Below are positions 2,534 to 51,733 of a stretch of 53,493 nucleotides of DNA, piece by piece. The translations under genes were made by a program, and so were the position numbers. Positions within the stretch are counted from its first letter, which is position 1; every line of letters starts with the position of its first letter. The notes beneath the pieces were generated by a model. The model saw nothing but the letters and a program-made list of their open reading frames with translations. It ran no database searches and was not told where the DNA came from. The stretch is from Gemmatimonadota bacterium (GTDB lineage Bacteria > Orphanbacterota > Orphanbacteria > Orphanbacterales > Orphanbacteraceae): positions 1 through 53,493 of the forward strand of contig JAGUYC010000066.1 of the NCBI GenBank assembly GCA_020061515.1, read 5' to 3'.

Positions 2534-3513
2534 CCGTTCCCCCTTCCTTCTCTCCCCTCGGGGGCGATCCGAACCGCCGCGCGGAGTCGGGCGCTCCTCG
2601 CCCGCGGGTTCCTCGCCACCTCCTCCTCGGACGGTCGGATCGCCCGGCGGGAAGATAGATGGAGCGCCGGGGTGCGTCCGCACCGGCAGACTGGCAGGTG
2701 CGGTGGACAGACGCAGCCCCGGGCCCACTCCTGAAAACGTTGCTTGACGACTCGATCTTCGATCGAGTGATACGCGATCACGGCGATGCGCCCGCCCGGC
2801 GCGAGCACGTCCACGGCCTGCGACAGTCCTTCCTCGAGCGAGGCGATCTCCTCGTTCACCTCGATGCGGATCGCTTGGAACACGCGCGCGAGTCCCTTGA
2901 TCCTTCCTTGGGCCGGAAGACGCGAAGAGACAACCTCGGCCAGCCGGCGCGTGCCGGCGATCGGAGCCGTCTCTCGCGCGCGCACGATCGCCCGCGCGAT
3001 CGCCCCGGCGTTCCGTTCTTCCCCCCAGCGGCGGATCATCCTCGCGAGTTCCTCGGCCGAGTAGCCGTTCACCACGTCGTAGGCGCTCCTGGTCCCGCTC
3101 CGGTCCATCCTCATGTCGAGCGCCCCCTCGGTCCGGTAGGAGAACCCGCGCTCGGAACGGTCGATTTGGAAGGAGCCGATCCCGAGGTCGAAGAGGATTC
3201 CCCCCACGCGCCCTTCCGATCCGGGACCGAGGAGCGCGCGAAGATCCCGAAAATTCCCTCGCACCAGATCCACGGGAACCGCGGATCGCACGAAGCGGCG
3301 CCCGGCTTCCTCGAGAATCTCTCCGTCGCGATCGATCCCCACGACACGCTCGATTCCCTCCACGGCATCGAGGACCGCGGCCGTGTGGTTGCCCAGCCCG
3401 AAGGTCGCGTCGACGAAGACTCCGCCCGGGAACGGCCGCAGCGCCTCGGCGACCTCGCGCGCCAAGACCGGTTCGTGGCCCCCTCCGCCGAGGGCCGGGT
3501 CATCGGATCTCAT
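2530..3513 (-). CDS. rsmH: 16S rRNA m4C1402 methyltransferase
   Basis: HEPVL, DATFGLGNH, LDMRMD, FQAIRIEVNEE, YHSIEDR, NPRARSARLR motifs. Confidence 0.97.
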   Translation of the reverse strand: MRSDDPALGGGGHEPVLAREVAEALRPFPGGVFVDATFGLGNHTAAVLDAVEGIERVVGIDRDGEILEEAGRRFVRSAVPVDLVRGNFRDLRALLGPGSEGRVGGILFDLGIGSFQIDRSERGFSYRTEGALDMRMDRSGTRSAYDVVNGYSAEELARMIRRWGEERNAGAIARAIVRARETAPIAGTRRLAEVVSSRLPAQGRIKGLARVFQAIRIEVNEEIASLEEGLSQAVDVLAPGGRIAVIAYHSIEDRVVKQRFQEWARGCVCPPHLPVCRCGRTPALHLSSRRAIRPSEEEVARNPRARSARLRAAVRIAPEGREGRGNG

Positions 3514-45375: not shown

Positions 45376-46437
45376 ATGCGCATTACCCGCATCGAGGCGT
45401 GGCCGGTCGCGATGAAGCTCGCCGTGCCGTACGCGATCGCGTACGAGACGGTCGAGACGGCGACCAACGTTTTCTTGAGGATTGAAACGAACGTGGGGGT
45501 GACCGGGTTCGGCTGCGCGGCGCCCGATCTCCCCGTGACCGGAGAGACGCCGGAGGACGTGCTCGAGGCGATCCGCACGATCGGCGAGGAGACGCTCAAG
45601 GGGACCGATCCGCTCCGGACGATCAAGTTGATCGAGATGCTCCGGCCGCACCTCGCTGCGAAGCGCTCGACGCTCGCTTGCATCGACATGGCGCTCCACG
45701 ACATCCTCGGGAAGAGCGCGGGGATGCCCCTTTGGAAGCTTCTCGGCGGCTTCCGAAGGAGCTTCCCCACGAGCATCACGATCGGGATTCTCCCGCTCGA
45801 GGAGACGGTGGCGAGGGCGTGCGAGTACGTGGGCCGCGGGTTTCGCTCGCTGAAGATCAAGGGCGGAGTGTCCGTCGATGAGGACGCGGAGCGGGTGCTC
45901 AAAGTGCGAGAGGCGGTCGGCCCGAAGATCGAGCTCCGCTTCGACGCGAACCAGGGGTACACGGTGGAGGGCTCGCTCCGCTTCGTCGAGAGCGCGCGAA
46001 AGGCGAAGCTCGAGCTGATCGAGCAGCCGACGCCGAAGGGCGAACCGGATCTTCTTGGGCATGTGACGAGCCGCGTGGCGCTCCCGATCATGGCGGACGA
46101 ATCGCTCCGCACGCTCCGCGATGCGTTCCGCCTCGCCCGGCGGGATCTCGTCGACATGGTGAACGTGAAGCTGATGAAGGTGGGCGGGATCGGCGAGGCG
46201 CTCCTCATCAACGCGGTCGCGCGCGCCGCGCGGCTCGAGGTGATGGTCGGATGCCTCGACGAGTCGGCGCTCGGAATCGCCGCGGGCCTCCACTTCGCGC
46301 TCGCGCGGCCGAACGTCGCCTACTGCGACCTCGACGGCCACCTCGACCTCGTCGACGACCCCGCCGACGGCGCGGTGATCCTCAAGGACGGGGTCCTCTA
46401 CCCGACCGACAAGCCCGGCCTCGGCTTCGATCTTTGA
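45376..46437 (+). CDS. Enolase-superfamily dipeptide epimerase / N-acyl amino acid racemase (DgcA-like)
   Basis: KIK, DANQG, EQP, ADES, NVKLMKVGG, DLDG motifs. Confidence 0.9.
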   Translation: MRITRIEAWPVAMKLAVPYAIAYETVETATNVFLRIETNVGVTGFGCAAPDLPVTGETPEDVLEAIRTIGEETLKGTDPLRTIKLIEMLRPHLAAKRSTLACIDMALHDILGKSAGMPLWKLLGGFRRSFPTSITIGILPLEETVARACEYVGRGFRSLKIKGGVSVDEDAERVLKVREAVGPKIELRFDANQGYTVEGSLRFVESARKAKLELIEQPTPKGEPDLLGHVTSRVALPIMADESLRTLRDAFRLARRDLVDMVNVKLMKVGGIGEALLINAVARAARLEVMVGCLDESALGIAAGLHFALARPNVAYCDLDGHLDLVDDPADGAVILKDGVLYPTDKPGLGFDL

Positions 46438-46447
46438 GATGTACTTG

Positions 46448-46600
46448 AGATGTACCAGGTACGTTCGGATCTACCAGGTACACGAATCCGGTACACGAAC
46501 CCGACCACACCCTGGGCACTCGCGCAGCCCGAAAACCCGCAACCCTCGAGCGCACCGTCCGTGAATCAGGGCATGATACTTGCGGGTTGTACCGGGTACA
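46448..46600. repeat. Left cluster of TGTACCWGGTACA-type palindromic REP-like repeats
   Basis: Copies at 46451-46462, 46472-46482 and 46588-46600. Confidence 0.75.
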
Positions 46601-46615
46601 GGAGGGTGGGGCGCG

Positions 46616-47167
46616 ATGGCGCGAACGCCTCGAATCGTGATCCCCGGAGTCCCGCACCACGTCTCGCAGCGAGGGAGTCAGGGACAGCATGTGTTCGACA
46701 CCGACGAAGACCGGGTTCTTTACCTCGACCTCCTTCACAGATACGCCAACATGCACGGTCTCGGGATATGGGCATACTGCTTGATGGCGAACCACGTCCA
46801 CTTGGTCGCCGTCCCTCAGGACGCCCAATCGATCGCTCTCTGTCTTCACGGCGCGCATCGTCTCCACGCCCTCCGGCGAAACCGGCGGGCCGGCGTGACC
46901 GGACATGTCTGGCAGGGTCACTACTATTCGTGCGGACTCGACGATCGGCATCTGTGGGCGGCCGTGCGGTATGTCGAACGGAATCCAGTCCGCGCCGGGA
47001 TCGTCGCCCGCGCCGAAGACTACCCGTGGTCCAGCGCGGCCGCGCACTGCGGGTCACGCGCGAACTTGCTTCTTGCGAACGATTTTCCGCCTTCGCACGA
47101 CGTCCGGGACTGGGCCGCGTGGCTCGCCGAGCCGGACGACGAAGCCCCGGTCGCCGCGATCCGGTGA
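46616..47167 (+). CDS. RAYT (REP-associated tyrosine transposase), probably C-terminally truncated
   Basis: MARTPRIVIPGVPHHVSQRG, AYCLMANHVHL, GHVWQGHY, YVERNPVRAG, YPWSS. Confidence 0.88.
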   Translation: MARTPRIVIPGVPHHVSQRGSQGQHVFDTDEDRVLYLDLLHRYANMHGLGIWAYCLMANHVHLVAVPQDAQSIALCLHGAHRLHALRRNRRAGVTGHVWQGHYYSCGLDDRHLWAAVRYVERNPVRAGIVARAEDYPWSSAAAHCGSRANLLLANDFPPSHDVRDWAAWLAEPDDEAPVAAIR

Positions 47168-47191
47168 GCCCGTGCAACCCTCGTCCGACCC

Positions 47192-47253
47192 TGTACCAGG
47201 CACAGACGATCCGTAGATGTACCAGGTACAGCCCGTGAAGTGTACCTGGTACA
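47192..47253. repeat. Right cluster of TGTACCWGGTACA palindromic REP-like repeats
   Basis: Copies at 47192-47204, 47218-47230 and 47241-47253. Confidence 0.8.
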
Positions 47254-47263
47254 GATTACTCGA

Positions 47264-47977
47264 TCACGGCTGTCCGTCGGCGTCGCTCCGATTCCCCAAT
47301 CGGCTCTCGAGCTCCTGAACCCGGTCGAGAAGGATCTCGAGCACGCGGACGTCGTGATCGCCACGGCTCTCGGTGAGATCCACCTTCACCGCCTCCTCGC
47401 CGTCCGGCCTTCCGCGCCCGAGGATGCGCGCGGCGATTCCGATCACGGTCGCCCCGGGCGGAACGTCCTTCACGACGACCGCGCCGGCGCCGATCCGCGC
47501 GTTCTCCCCGACGCGGAGCGCGCCGAGCACCTTCGCGCCCGCGCCGACGATGACTCCTCGCTCGAGCGTGGGATGGCGCTTCTTCTTCTCGAGGCTCGTG
47601 CCGCCGAGGGTCACCCCTTGATAGAGAACGACGTCATCGCCGATCTCGGCCGTCTCTCCGATCACGACGCCCATTCCGTGATCGATGAAGAAACGCCTCC
47701 CGACGACCGCACCCGGATGGATCTCGATCCCGGTAAGCGCGCGGCTCGCGTGGCTGAGGAGCCGTGCCGCGAAGCGCAGCCTCCACGTCCAGAGCCGGTG
47801 CGCGAGGCGATGCATCCAGATCGCGTGAAGACCCGGGTAGCAGAAGAGCACCTCGAGAGCGCTCCGCGCCGCGGGATCCTTTTCGAAGACCGTTCGAATA
47901 TCCTCGAGAGGACGGTCGAACGGTTTCGGCCATTCTTTCGCGCGCACCGCCGGCGCCGCTTCCACATGCTCCGCCAT
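47264..47977 (-). CDS. cysE: Serine O-acetyltransferase
   Basis: [42 protein letters not shown]. Confidence 0.96.
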
Positions 47978-47981
47978 CTCC

Positions 47982-48941
47982 CTACTCCTTTCGCGCCGCG
48001 GGCGCTGCCTTCGCGACATCGAGAAGCGCCGTCGAAAGATACCGCTCCCCCGTGTCCGGAAAGATCGCGACGAGGAGCTTCCCCGCGTTTTCCCGACGCC
48101 TCGCGACCTCGAGCGCCGCGACGAGCGCCGCTCCGCACGAGATCCCGGCGAGGATCCCCTCCTCGCGCGCGATCCGGCGAGCCGCCGCGAACGCCTCGTC
48201 GCTTGATACCTGAATGATCTCGTCGATCACGCTTGGGTTCAGGATCTTCGGGACGAACCCGGCCCCGATCCCCTGGATCTTGTGCGGAGCCGGCTTTCCG
48301 CCCGACAACACCGGGGACTCCCTCGGCTCGACCGCCACGAGGCGGAGCGAAGGACGCCGCGGCTTCAGAACCTCTCCGCATCCGGTGATCGTCCCGCCCG
48401 TTCCGATCCCGGAGACGAGGATGTCGACCCTGCCGTCGGTGTCGGCCCAGATCTCCTCAGCGGTCGTCTCGCAATGGATCGCGGGGTTCGCCGAGTTCTC
48501 GAACTGTTGAGGGATATACGATTGAGGTGTTTCCGCGGCGACCTCCCGTGCCCGTTCGACCGCGCCGGTCATCCCCTTCTCGCCGGGGGTGAGGATCACC
48601 TCCGCGCCGAAAAGCCGGAGTAGGTTTCGCCGCTCAAGGCTCACGGTCTCGGGCATCGTCACGATGAGGCGATACCCCCTCGCCGCCGCCACGAACGCGA
48701 GGGCGATCCCGGTGTTTCCGCTCGTCGGCTCGACGAGCACCGTCACCCCGGGGCGGATCAGTCCCTCGCGCTCCGCCGCGTCGATCATGCTCACGCCGAT
48801 CCGGTCCTTCACGCTCGAGAGCGGGTTGAACGACTCGAGCTTCGCGACGATCCGCGCGCCTCCCTTCGGCGACAGACGCCGAAGCTCGACGAGGGGCGTA
48901 CGCCCGATGGTTTTCGTGATGTCCGAATAGATGGTTCCCAT
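47982..48941 (-). CDS. cysK: Cysteine synthase A
   Basis: [49 protein letters not shown]. Confidence 0.97.
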
Positions 48942-49014
48942 GCCAAGAGTTCCTTCCGATGGCTCCCCGCGGCGACGCTTCGCGCGGCCGCCGCCGGAAA
49001 CCGGTGCCGGGGAC

Positions 49015-49045
49015 GAGAAAACCCGCCGGCGCGCTGCCGACGGGT
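49015..49045 (-). terminator. Attenuator terminator hairpin in the cysK leader
   Basis: ACCCGUCGGC-AGCGC-GCCGGCGGGU then UUUCUC, lying between the leader peptide stop and the cysK start. Confidence 0.78.
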
Positions 49046-49083
49046 GGAAGTCTCGATCCGGTTCGGCGATCGGAAACGATGGA

Positions 49084-49164
49084 CTAGATCGAGGCCCTCC
49101 CTCCCGCGGCGCGCGCGCGACAACAACAACAGCAGCAGCCAATCCCGCGGGCGAAGGTTCTCAT
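49084..49164 (-). CDS. Cysteine-rich leader peptide [26 protein letters not shown]
   Basis: GAGG SD 6 nt before ATG; TGC TGC TGT TGT TGT TGT; TAG at 49086-49084; directly upstream of cysK-cysE. Confidence 0.88.
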
Positions 49165-49210
49165 TCCGTTCCTCGAATCCGGCCGAACGACCGACCGTGT
49201 TTGTTGGTGA

Positions 49211-49239
49211 AGTATAGCGTGAAAGCCCGCGCGCGTCAA
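49211..49239 (-). promoter_or_regulatory. Sigma70 promoter of the leader-cysK-cysE operon
   Basis: TTGACG (49239-49234), 17 nt, TATACT (49216-49211). Confidence 0.8.
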
Positions 49240-49267
49240 ACGACTCCTCGATGCGCCGGCCGGATCC

Positions 49268-50575
49268 TCACGTTCTCGCGAGGAAGGTCACCGTCTCGAC
49301 GTGCGGCGTTTGCGGGAACATGTCGACGAGAAGCACGCGCTCGATCCCGTATCCCTCCGCCTCGAGCAGGCGCGCGTCGCGCGCGAGGGTCGCCGGATCG
49401 CAGCTCACGAGGTCGATCCGCCGCGGGCGGAGACGCCCGAGGTCGCGGACCACGGAAGCCCCGAGCCCCGTCCGCGGCGGATCGGCGACGACCTCCGCTC
49501 CCTCGGAGTCTCCGAACGGAAGCCCGCTCTCCGCCCATCCGGAGAGGACCTTCTCGACGAGACCCGGGACGACGGTTCCTCTCTTCGCGACGTCCGGATC
49601 CCGCGCGAGGTTCGCGCGCGCGTCCCGAACCGCGCCGCGATCGCTCTCGACCGTCACCACCCTCTCGAAGCGATCCCCGAGCGCCGCGGCGAAAAGGCCG
49701 ACCCCGCCGTAGAGATCGAGGAGAAGAGGCCCGCTCCGGTCCGCGGATCGGCCGCGCTCTTCCATCCGCGCGCCGAGCCGGCGGACGAGCGCCTCGGTCT
49801 CCGCAAGGTTCACCTGAAAGAAGCTGTGCGCGTGCGCGCGGAACATGCGCCCGGCGAGCGGGATCTCCAGATTCTCCTCTCCCCACACCACCCTCCCGCT
49901 CACGAGAAGGCCGAGGCAGGAGGGCGGAACGCGGATCCCTCCGATCCTCGCGAGAACGCGTTCGGCGAACGAGGCGGGCTTTTCCTTCACTCCGGAGAGA
50001 TCGGCGAGGAAGCCGCCCCTCCCGTCGAGCCGGACGAGCGCCTGCGGAGCGCGCGGGAGATCGAGAAGGAACGGGAGCGCTTCGCGGTTGAACACTTCGG
50101 GCATCAGAAGGCTTCGGTCGAGCGGAATGACCTCGTGCGTCCCGCGGCGGTGCATTCCGTATCGCCCGCCGGACCCGAGATGCAGAAGAATCTTGTTCCG
50201 GTATCCCCAGGCGGGACCGGCCGGCTCCGGACCCGTCAGCCGCTCCCCGAGATCGATGCGCGCGATCCGCGCGAAGCAGTCGCGCACGATCTCCCGCTTC
50301 GCCGCCCGCTGCGCGGAGAGCTTCATGTAGAAAAGATCGGCCCCCGCGAGCGCGCCGGGCGACGCATCCGGAGGATCTTCCCGATCCGGCGAGGCATCGA
50401 GGATCTCGACGAGCGCAGCCTCGATGAACCCCTTCGCGCGCCGGACGACCCTCACCCGCACGCGCTCCCCCGGCAGCGCCCCGCGGACGAACACCACCTC
50501 CCCGTCCATCCGCCCCATCCCGGCGCCGCCGGTCACGAGCTTCTCAATCGTCGTTTCGAGGACTTCGCCGTGCAT
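49268..50575 (-). CDS. TRAM-domain RNA m5U methyltransferase (RlmD/TrmA family)
   Basis: FVRGALPGE, YRNK, SFFQVN, DLYGGVG, DPPRTG, VSCDPATLARD, DMFPQTPHVE. Confidence 0.9.
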   Translation of the reverse strand: MHGEVLETTIEKLVTGGAGMGRMDGEVVFVRGALPGERVRVRVVRRAKGFIEAALVEILDASPDREDPPDASPGALAGADLFYMKLSAQRAAKREIVRDCFARIARIDLGERLTGPEPAGPAWGYRNKILLHLGSGGRYGMHRRGTHEVIPLDRSLLMPEVFNREALPFLLDLPRAPQALVRLDGRGGFLADLSGVKEKPASFAERVLARIGGIRVPPSCLGLLVSGRVVWGEENLEIPLAGRMFRAHAHSFFQVNLAETEALVRRLGARMEERGRSADRSGPLLLDLYGGVGLFAAALGDRFERVVTVESDRGAVRDARANLARDPDVAKRGTVVPGLVEKVLSGWAESGLPFGDSEGAEVVADPPRTGLGASVVRDLGRLRPRRIDLVSCDPATLARDARLLEAEGYGIERVLLVDMFPQTPHVETVTFLART

Positions 50576-50635
50576 AAGCAGAAACGCCCGGTGCCGAATC
50601 GCGAATCGGGCCGGGCGCGAAGGGAGTGCGGGCTC

Positions 50636-50869
50636 CTACCAATCGAGGATCAAGTTCGTGGTGGTCCCCTGGATCCCCTCGATCGCCCGAATCTTGCTCA
50701 CCACCAGGTCGAGAATCGAATCGACCGAACCGCTTTCGACGAGACAAATGATATCCTGCTCGCCGGCCGTGATGTCGGCGCTCAGGACCTCGGGAACCTG
50801 ACGAAGGCGGTTGCGGACGTCCACCTCGCGCCCGACGTCGGTGTTGATGCGAAGATACGCCTTGGCCAT
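50636..50869 (-). CDS. Stand-alone Lrp/AsnC ligand-binding domain protein
   Basis: KAYLRINT...TAGEQDII...IRAIEGIQGTTT; AGGAG RBS. Confidence 0.8.
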   Translation of the reverse strand: MAKAYLRINTDVGREVDVRNRLRQVPEVLSADITAGEQDIICLVESGSVDSILDLVVSKIRAIEGIQGTTTNLILDW

Positions 50870-50920
50870 TGCCGCTCCTTCTCGGTTCGCCCCCGCGCGC
50901 CGGCGCGAAGAGCCCTCCGT

Positions 50921-51493
50921 CTAGTAGAACACGATCTTCCGCAGCGTCTGCAGCTCGTCTCCAGTCACCAGGAAGGAACCGCCCTCCTGCAGCTCGCCGC
51001 CGATCTGGTTGATGCGAACGATGAACTCGATCGTCTCGCCGTCGGTCTTCCGGATCTCCGTGCGGAAGGTGTAGTCGAGATCCTTGTCCTCGATCATGTC
51101 GTACTTGTGCGAAGCCGAAAGCGCCTCGGAAGCTCCGATCCTTCCGAGAACGCGAAGCTGCTTGATGAAGCGCTTCTTGATCTCGTAGCGGGTGTTGAGG
51201 AAGTACCCGACCAGGGCCTCGCTCGATCCGAAGCCGTGCCCGGTGTTGAAACGGATATTTCTTACATAATACGTATCGATATCGGTTGTAACGATTCCGT
51301 TCTTATTGACTTGAAGCGTTTCGAGGAAGGGAGAGTCGGATTCCGTTTCCTGGGCCGCCTCCCGATCGCGCTCCCGGCCTTCCGAGCGCGCCTTCGCGTC
51401 GGCGTCCCCGAGCCGAGGCGCTCCGGCGCAGGCCGCGAGAAGAAGGAAAAGGAACAGAAGGGGAAATGGGCTTCGCCTGATCGCCGTGGACAC
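50921..51493 (-). CDS. Hypothetical lipoprotein
   Basis: Lipobox LAAC; GGAGG RBS before GTG. Confidence 0.7.
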   Translation of the reverse strand: MSTAIRRSPFPLLFLFLLLAACAGAPRLGDADAKARSEGRERDREAAQETESDSPFLETLQVNKNGIVTTDIDTYYVRNIRFNTGHGFGSSEALVGYFLNTRYEIKKRFIKQLRVLGRIGASEALSASHKYDMIEDKDLDYTFRTEIRKTDGETIEFIVRINQIGGELQEGGSFLVTGDELQTLRKIVFY

Positions 51494-51733
51494 GTGGCAC
51501 CTCCTCGAAGGCGGACCTCGGAGCGACCGACCGCCTTCATGCTACCGGGCCGGCGCGGCGCGCGTCAAGAAGCATCGGGTCAACGATCCGGCCCCCGCAT
51601 CCCCTCGACGCAGGGCCGGAAGAGGTCGAAGATCCCGGCGATGCTCCCTCCCGACCTCCGCTCTTTTCGAGTGGCCGCGCGATGGGCCTCAGGCTAAGTT
51701 AATGCATGAGCCCCGCATGGTAGGGAGAGCCGC

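Follow-up and report, generated by a model that had tools for sequence, protein, structure and literature searches.

A predicted terminator-type poly-cysteine leader attenuator upstream of cysK-cysE in the candidate phylum Eisenbacteria

The window analysed here is a stretch of 53,493 nucleotides (nt), contig JAGUYC010000066.1 of the assembly GCA_020061515.1, from an uncultured bacterium of a phylum labelled Candidatus Eisenbacteria; it corresponds to contig C62 of a 3.32-Mb, 341-contig genome that is 91% complete and has a G+C content of 65.8%. On its minus strand, a compact element of about 190 nt lies in front of cysK and cysE. We consider it probable, on the basis of folding models and comparison with related genomes, that this element is a real ribosome-mediated transcription attenuator of the trp/his type, which reads charged cysteine transfer RNA (tRNA-Cys) and controls cysK-cysE in response to cysteine. 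As modelled, the element has every sequence-level feature of the trp/his attenuator class. An initial annotation of the same DNA had described a promoter (TTGACG-17-TATACT), a Shine-Dalgarno sequence, a 26-codon open reading frame (ORF) with six cysteine codons, and a terminator upstream of cysK-cysE, and all of these were found on the minus strand where it had placed them.

The -35 hexamer TTGACG (49234-49239), recognised by reading the sequence and by a consensus scan, is followed after a 17-nt spacer by the -10 hexamer TATACT (49211-49216). This pair was the sole match to a sigma-70-like site in 46000-51000 (0.3 ± 0.6 expected from shuffled sequences), and it would place the transcription start near 49204, about 40 nt before the leader ATG. 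The leader ORF occupies 49084-49164 (26 codons and a stop, with ATG at 49164 and TAG at 49086-49084); its ATG lies 46 nt past the end of the predicted -10 hexamer, and the Shine-Dalgarno sequence, GAGGA (49170-49174), is separated from it by 5 nt. Midway through the ORF are six consecutive Cys codons, TGC TGC TGT TGT TGT TGT (49120-49137), the presumed regulatory codons. A count of TGY-codon runs over the whole 3,319,844-base genome, on both strands and in all frames, gave 62 runs of three, two of four, and one of six, so that the run in the leader is the only one of at least five in its own genome; about 0.003 six-codon runs are expected genome-wide by chance, as estimated from base composition. 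Two other Cys runs were considered as leaders and rejected: that at C68:810 is apparently antisense to a coding region and has no terminator, and that on C63 is inside a 596-codon frame. The choice of codons is also unusual. TGT makes up 13.4% of the 3,964 Cys codons in 699 long ORFs with high G+C at third codon positions, and four of the six leader Cys codons are TGT. The program aragorn found a single tRNA-Cys, with the anticodon GCA, among the 45 tRNAs of the genome, and TGT must therefore be read by wobble.

The predicted intrinsic terminator (49014-49045) consists of a 10-bp stem (49045-49021) and the tract UUUUCUC (49020-49014). Its stem arms, ACCCGTCGGC/GCCGGCGGGT (given also as ACCCGUCGGC/GCCGGCGGGU), form 10 pairs, eight of them G-C, around a loop of 5 nt, and the hairpin folded by itself has an energy of -19.6 kcal/mol. 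It is placed 38 nt past the leader stop codon and about 75 nt before cysK. Six terminator-like sites were found in 46000-51000 (2.7 ± 1.5 expected), among which this hairpin is by far the longest. Strict terminator-like sites are few genome-wide (42, versus 18 in the reversed sequence). The occurrence of a strong terminator 38 nt behind the unique Cys sORF (short ORF) is unlikely to be a coincidence.

The genes behind the terminator are those named in the initial annotation. The first gene (47982-48941, minus strand) carries the Pfam domain PALP and matches the NCBIfam model of cysteine synthase A, TIGR01139, with 452 bits (cut-off 351), identifying it as cysK. The second (47264-48019, minus strand) carries Hexapep repeats of Pfam and matches the serine O-acetyltransferase model TIGR01172 with 251 bits (cut-off 211), identifying it as cysE. 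The coordinates of cysE are those of the longest ORF, which overlaps the end of cysK, and the TIGR01172 match begins at residue 39; the true start of cysE may be further downstream.

In order to describe the predicted RNA switch, the 195-nt RNA from 49204 to 49010 was folded with and without a ribosome. The unconstrained minimum free energy (MFE) fold had an energy of -93.2 kcal/mol (z = -2.37; 4 of 200 shuffles were at least as stable), and in this fold CCCGCGG and CCGCGGG are paired across the Cys run, as the initial annotation had proposed. Segment 1, which comprises the 5' untranslated region (UTR) and the first nine codons (49145-49188), is predicted to pair with the arm behind the Cys run (post-Cys arm, 49109-49061) when the ribosome is absent, so that the terminator is free to form. 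The probability of the terminator, P(terminator), calculated as the mean pair probability, was 0.99 in this state.

In our main ribosome model, all RNA on the 5' side of the stalled ribosome was masked. With the ribosome stalled at any of the first four Cys codons (Cys1-4), P(terminator) was 0.000; it was 0.58 with a stall at Cys5, and 0.99 with the ribosome at Cys6, at later codons, or at the stop codon. In the Cys1-4 stalls, a long helix of -54 to -59 kcal/mol joins 49121-49086 to 49060-49024. The 5' arm of this predicted antiterminator (49086-49121) extends from the last Cys codon to the stop codon and would be masked by a ribosome at the stop; its 3' arm (49024-49060) consists of GGAUCGAGACUUCC together with the terminator 5' arm, the loop, and the start of the terminator 3' arm, all of which are engulfed. 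The segment CGCGCGCGCC, directly behind the Cys run, takes part as well; its partners are the terminator loop and the first part of the terminator 3' arm. An antiterminator exclusive with the terminator, as well as its release by a ribosome stalled at Cys codons and its masking by one at the stop, had been anticipated in the initial annotation; the constrained folds reproduced both, with a longer antiterminator than first described. For the Cys1-3 stalls, P(terminator) stayed at 0.00 when the edge of the ribosome footprint was varied from +9 to +17 and when the temperature was set to 37, 50, or 60 °C.

Total folding energy is uninformative at 66% G+C, and we therefore used the energy gained by sequestration of the terminator arm as the measure of specificity. 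Sequestration by the post-Cys region gained -15.5 kcal/mol, a value reached by one of 400 sequences obtained from that region by dinucleotide shuffling. In truncated transcripts, the terminator 5' arm had a mean pairing probability that did not discriminate between the states.

On these models, the element could work as follows. Transcription would begin about 40 nt before the 26-codon leader ORF, and a ribosome would load as RNA polymerase moves ahead. When Cys-tRNA is scarce, the ribosome would stall in the first four of the six Cys codons and leave free the G+C-rich stretch behind the run; this stretch would pair with the segment holding the terminator 5' arm and loop, blocking the terminator and letting the polymerase read into cysK-cysE. 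When Cys-tRNA is plentiful, the ribosome would reach the TAG codon and cover the antiterminator 5' arm, the 10-bp terminator would form, and transcription would end near 49014-49020. Without translation, the 5' UTR and the first codons would pair with the post-Cys arm, and the terminator would again form. We infer that transcription and translation are coupled in this phylum, that the hairpin actually terminates transcription, and that the operon responds to cysteine.

Ten species genomes of the phylum were compared. A cysK orthologue (E ≤ 1e-90) was found in three of them: the window's own genome (locus L001), a genome of the same genus (G002, locus L002), and one of another genus (G003, locus L004). 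All three orthologues lie behind a poly-Cys leader and a terminator. With this query no cysK orthologue was found in the other seven phylum genomes, two of which are only 82% complete. The leader peptide of L002 also has 26 residues, with five Cys, because the sixth codon of the run is CGT; its terminator before cysK has a 12-bp stem followed by seven U. In L004, whose CysK is 67% identical, an unrelated leader peptide, MDRRTCCCCRDKSRKGAGPRRIRIRV, and a terminator precede cysK. A metagenome contig (L134), whose CysK is 72% identical and the closest among the 80 metagenome loci kept, begins inside an ORF reading ..HTCCCCCPLRG.. and continues with a terminator similar to that of the window. These relatives share a Cys run, a stop in frame with it, and hairpins; their peptides otherwise differ.

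The alignment of the window with L002 shows where the conservation lies. The promoter hexamers are conserved, with TTGACG retained and TAAACT at the place of TATACT, and the 17-nt spacer matches at 6 of 17 positions (counted by hand). The leader shows about 89% identity from ACGGTCGG onward; GAGGA is identical, and the three substitutions in the ORF before the last Cys codon (ATT/ATC, GGC/GGT, and TGC/TGT) are all synonymous. Of the 61 pairs of the no-ribosome fold, 52 are unchanged, six change from G-C to G-U, two are broken, and one falls in a gap; the corresponding numbers for the 41 pairs of the antiterminator fold are 33, three, five, and none. Neither fold contains a double change.

A comparison with related genomes had been proposed in the initial annotation. 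In this comparison, the Cys run, the terminator, and their position before cysK recur in the same-genus genome, in a second genus of the family, and in the metagenome contig, and covarying stems are absent with the few sequences available. The sample for covariation consists of two close and two distant sequences, and the four-way alignment is 61% identical.

The switch was also modelled in the relatives, where it is weaker than in the window. In L002, P(terminator) was 0.16 with a stall at Cys1 and 0.26 at Cys2, at least 0.81 at later positions, and 0.98 at the stop; the values at the Cys codons versus the stop were 0.44-0.79 versus 0.99 in L004, and 0.22-0.41 versus 0.76 in L134. The sequestration energy in L004 was -15.6 kcal/mol, which was reached by 10 of 400 shuffles.

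Several further observations concern the surroundings of the leader in these relatives. Between 49211-49239 of the window and 1204-1232 of L002, the hexamers are kept, but neither the spacer nor any of the sequence before the promoter is related. The two genomes also have different neighbour genes on that side, the break in synteny falling exactly at the promoter. A 933-nt contig from the hot-spring metagenome runs X2-X4 is about 90% identical to the window over 48946-49400, including leader and promoter; it joins 48708 straight to 48946, omitting 237 nt of the 5' end of cysK, and this junction could be an assembly artefact or a variant. Beside this contig, the four DNA runs examined otherwise contained only fragments of cysK from other organisms, and they yielded no further leader sequence that could be used. 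A search for RNA runs covering 47900-49400 found none.

Poly-Cys leaders in the phylum are not confined to cysK. Searches of the other phylum genomes for four consecutive TGY codons gave 67 and 64 matches, of which 30 each and a further 20 TGT-rich loci were viewed; the matches outside the viewed set are nearly all pure or mostly TGC runs. Among the viewed matches there were at least two further leaders, L194 in the genome G007 and L247 in the genome G009. In L194 (1437-1625 of the locus; G007:C2, from the same family as the window), TTGACA and TATACT are separated by 17 nt, and the ATG follows just 9 nt after the -10 hexamer; the messenger RNA (mRNA) may thus be leaderless or nearly so. The peptide is MNLSHTICCCCLCLRPGEKG, all of its Cys codons are TGT, and the terminator has seven U behind it. 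In L247 (1481-1625; G009:C28, from another family of the class), the peptide MRYVACACCCCLLHPGGGVQAAPIVTA is followed by a nested terminator hairpin. Both leaders precede a siroheme-synthase-like gene (NAD_binding_7 and Sirohm_synth_M) and a TP_methylase gene. This siroheme-synthase operon is present in two of the ten phylum genomes, G007 and G009, in both cases behind a poly-Cys leader with a terminator. The modelled switch is weak in L194 (0.62 versus 0.89), and the equilibrium model predicts no antiterminator in L247. A tblastn search of the window's own genome assembly, which is 91% complete, did not find a siroheme-synthase-like gene; the sulfide used by CysK may come from outside the organism, or the siroheme locus may be unassembled.

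Taken together, each of the five loci for cysK or siroheme synthase in the phylum genomes carries a poly-Cys leader and a terminator. The poly-Cys leader attenuator is apparently the main regulator of the cysteine pathway across the candidate phylum.

To place these leaders in a wider context, 190 cysK loci, including that of the window, were collected: 30 from 61 genomes, 80 named genome contigs, and 80 metagenome contigs. Within 300 nt upstream of cysK and on the cysK strand, six runs of at least four TGY codons occur in 56,111 nt, and elsewhere in the same loci nine occur in 1,716,033 nt. The six upstream runs compare with 0.29 expected (Poisson 7e-7), a count that includes the window's own locus and in which L001 and L002 are kin. 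Three of the nine runs elsewhere are themselves leaders before the first gene of an operon. By eye, 8 of 27 rows of candidate sORFs were kept as showing a leader, a hairpin, and a U run before a cys-related gene, and by the same judgement 9 of the 190 loci have a poly-Cys sORF and a hairpin with a U run before such a gene. The downstream genes of the nine loci were checked against Pfam. Four of them (L001, L002, L004, and L134) have been described above. In L011, from the lineage of the genome G044, the leader is followed by a cysE-like gene of the hexapeptide type and by cysK; in L095, a Terriglobia metagenome-assembled genome (MAG), the leader is directly before cysK; and L111, a metagenome contig, has a leader with a weak U run. 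In L031, a Syntrophales MAG (1463-1640), a Cys- and Met-rich leader ending ..IMVMCGPMCCCNCRMEGSFM and a terminator are followed by a Cys_Met_Meta_PP gene (O-acetylhomoserine sulfhydrylase-like) and cysK, and the leader could be a dual Cys/Met sensor. In L092, a Dormiibacterota MAG (1300-1440), a Cys-rich sORF ending ..VLCCCMCSPPCG and a terminator stand before a peroxiredoxin gene (AhpC/TSA), and cysK follows after roughly another 1.6 kb; this arrangement may link the Cys supply to thiol-peroxidase expression. The modelled antiterminator of L092 is partial. Two other loci, L071 (an Actinomycetota MAG) and L096 (Mycobacterium asiaticum), show the Actinobacterial form, in which the Cys run is at the stop codon.

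These data raise a broader proposal, to which we assign about an even chance: that the phylum possesses a 'cysteine ribulon', in which the cysteine-pathway operons of Eisenbacteria (cysK-cysE and siroheme synthase) are all under terminator-type poly-Cys attenuators and not under a CysB- or CymR-like protein, and that the device has arisen independently in Terriglobia, Dormiibacterota, Syntrophales, and the lineage of G044.

A number of points weigh against attenuation as the function of the window element. Our folding models describe equilibrium and are not kinetic. When only a 28-nt ribosome footprint was masked and the RNA on its 5' side could still pair, P(terminator) was 0.02 and 0.11 at Cys1 and Cys2, 0.72 at Cys3, and 0.99 at Cys4-6, giving a narrower switch. 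In total folding energy, the antiterminator segment does not stand out at its G+C content (z = -2.0, -0.2, and -1.1). The U tract of the terminator is interrupted (UUUUCUC), and strict terminator-like sites are sparse in the genome as a whole. In L002, from the same genus, the antiterminator is weaker, and the sequestration energy, calculated for a transcript truncated within the terminator at its loop, did not exceed that of shuffled sequences (186 of 400). No compensatory base changes were found between the window and L002 in either fold. The distant look-alikes L011, L095, L111, and L031 do not switch in the equilibrium model, which predicts no antiterminator in them. Finally, a crude scan of the window's own genome for sORF runs of W, H, F, C, M, T, I, Y, K, N, or Q found no other amino-acid-run leader with a terminator.

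Three other explanations of the window element were considered. The best of them, which we nevertheless regard as improbable, is that the sORF senses Cys-tRNA and acts after transcription, on the initiation of cysK translation or on mRNA stability, the hairpin being a stabiliser or an unregulated, leaky terminator. Such an action is the only mechanism experimentally demonstrated for poly-Cys leaders, namely in mycobacteria (bioRxiv 10.1101/834739), and the lack of a modelled antiterminator in L011, L095, L111, and L247 is in keeping with it. The RNA between the terminator and the Shine-Dalgarno sequence of cysK (48945-49013, minus strand) is also of interest in this respect. It belongs to a G+C-rich stretch of about 80 nt in which about 5 of 82 positions are changed in the same-genus genome; this stretch can form a long hairpin and can pair part of the Shine-Dalgarno and start region. 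The fold touching the cysK Shine-Dalgarno sequence is, however, no better than that of shuffles (z = -0.84; 37 of 200 at least as good). Moreover, cysK (ATG at 48941) has a Shine-Dalgarno site of its own, 75 nt beyond the terminator, and a full terminator is placed 38 nt past the leader stop and overlapped by a specific antiterminator (one of 400 shuffles).

It is still less probable that the leader RNA is a structured element resembling a riboswitch or a T-box, with a protein, tRNA, or small molecule as its ligand, and that the sORF is incidental. The 5' UTR and leader are about 89% conserved with L002 and the promoter spacer is not, and the stability of the unconstrained fold relative to shuffles (4 of 200) would suit such an element. 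Against this, a cmscan search of 48000-50000 with the Rfam models (E up to 10) gave four hits, all far below threshold (the best with E = 0.39 and 19.9 bits, versus a gathering score of 50) and none of them a leader family such as His_leader, Trp_leader, Thr_leader, or Leu_leader. Across genera, the RNA sequence diverges, but the leader retains its Cys run with a start and a stop in frame, and the substitutions relative to L002 before the last Cys codon are all synonymous. A model based on RNA alone cannot account for the Cys run.

Least probable of all is the reading in which Cys is not sensed: the sORF would be a product of chance or the gene of a functional micropeptide rich in Cys, and the hairpin an ordinary terminator or insulator of the upstream RlmD-like gene. 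Short Cys-rich peptides do exist, and the RlmD-like gene ends at 49268 without a terminator of its own. However, the promoter separates that gene from the hairpin, chance would give about 0.003 six-TGY runs in the whole genome, the peptide shows no conservation outside the Cys run, and in the phylum the same design stands before each of the five loci for cysK or siroheme synthase. Cys-responsive transcription attenuation thus remains the explanation that we prefer for the window element.

Other features of the locus and the genome were also recorded. On the plus strand, the ORFs 48931-50091, 49301-51697, 47240-48217, and 46450-47238 extend over the locus; they have no Pfam match and were taken as antisense artefacts of high G+C. 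The crude scan for amino-acid runs mentioned above returned, together with the Cys element, only a Lys-rich sORF of 34 codons, MADKEQRKRTEKTNKPKLSPKEKKEKKAKKKACK, near 3042 on the plus strand of contig C114 of the same genome. It ends close to a terminator-like hairpin, and its product may be a small basic protein, in which case it would not be a leader.

If the cysteine ribulon proposed above is real, it would represent a widespread class of amino-acid attenuators that is absent from databases. For cysteine, the sole tested case, in mycobacteria, is translational, and the early predictions in Actinobacteria lacked terminators; a terminator-type Cys attenuator would fill this gap. It would also offer a first point of entry into gene regulation in Eisenbacteria, a candidate phylum without a cultured member, for which we know of no regulators. 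The arrangement suggests that the charging of Cys-tRNA, rather than a sulfur-sensing transcription factor, governs cysteine synthesis in this phylum. The scattered look-alikes outside the phylum suggest that a simple search, for a poly-Cys sORF and a terminator before cys genes, would reveal many more.

Leader-peptide attenuation is textbook knowledge for Trp, His, Leu, Thr, Phe, and Ile/Val. In Escherichia coli, the trp, his, leu, thr, and pheA operons have leader-peptide attenuators with tandem codons for the amino acid of their own pathway; PMC1262725 and PMC2965389 cite comparative studies of such attenuators. In the classical scheme, segments 1 and 2 pair as an anti-antiterminator, segments 2 and 3 as the antiterminator, and segments 3 and 4 as the intrinsic terminator, and a ribosome at the stop codon masks segment 2. 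The window element resembles these attenuators in its promoter-proximal sORF, in the codons for the amino acid made by the operon, in the predicted 1:2, 2:3, and 3:4 segments, in the placement of the stop codon, and in the biosynthetic genes downstream. It differs from them in sensing cysteine, as we propose, and has no sequence or Rfam relationship with them; its host belongs to an uncultured phylum and has 66% G+C; its helices are much longer and richer in G+C; and its regulatory run, mostly of rare TGT codons, is in the loop of the 1:2 structure.

The literature that we searched contained no description of a terminator-type poly-Cys leader for cysK or cysE, although such a leader may be listed in cross-phylum surveys of attenuators or in supplements; nor did it contain anything on regulation in Eisenbacteria. 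In a term search of Naville and Gautheret (2010, PMC2965389), cysK and cysE are not mentioned and 'cysteine' occurs once, in a cited title. The view taken in the initial annotation that poly-Cys leaders are known mainly from Actinobacteria agrees with two reports (PMC1262725 and bioRxiv 10.1101/834739); one terminator-type Cys upstream ORF has been predicted before cysS in Rhodobacterales (PMC8632094).

By comparative genomics, Seliverstov et al. (2005, PMC1262725) predicted Cys leader peptides upstream of cys and cbs operons in Mycobacterium, Propionibacterium acnes, and Bifidobacterium longum. In these, the Cys run is next to the stop codon, no obvious terminator hairpins were found, and an involvement of Rho was suggested. 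The window leader differs in that its Cys run is central in the ORF and is followed by a canonical terminator, whereas L071 and L096 resemble the type described by Seliverstov et al. The Rhodobacterales ORF, uORFC-8-2, is according to Brewer et al. (2021, PMC8632094) a predicted attenuator before cysS with two Cys codons and a terminator stem followed by a U run, and the window element is likewise a predicted ribosome-mediated attenuator with Cys codons and a U-run terminator. In contrast to the 4-6 Cys codons of the leaders described here, uORFC-8-2 has two; it controls cysteinyl-tRNA synthetase and not Cys biosynthesis, and it is known from one alphaproteobacterial order. Our Rfam scan showed no similarity of the window element to uORFC-8-2, although it is uncertain whether Rfam has a model for the latter.

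The remaining comparison is with the leaderless polycysteine sORFs of mycobacteria. In the work of Canestrari et al. (2020, bioRxiv 10.1101/834739), translational attenuation is demonstrated for these sORFs and contrasted with terminator-based models: the Shine-Dalgarno sequence of the next gene is unmasked, no intrinsic terminator is involved, and several loci share the device, for which the name 'ribulon' was given. A 2026 paper on M. tuberculosis (PMC13236596) again treats the cys leaders as translational. The window element does not belong to this leaderless translational class, nor to any Rfam family. Unlike the mycobacterial sORFs, that of the window has a probable 5' UTR of about 40 nt, a Shine-Dalgarno sequence of its own, and a predicted terminator/antiterminator pair; L194 of G007, which is possibly nearly leaderless as the mycobacterial sORFs are, nevertheless has a terminator. 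The two types are alike in that the Cys run lies in a short ORF heading a cysteine-metabolism operon and that several loci of the lineage share the device.

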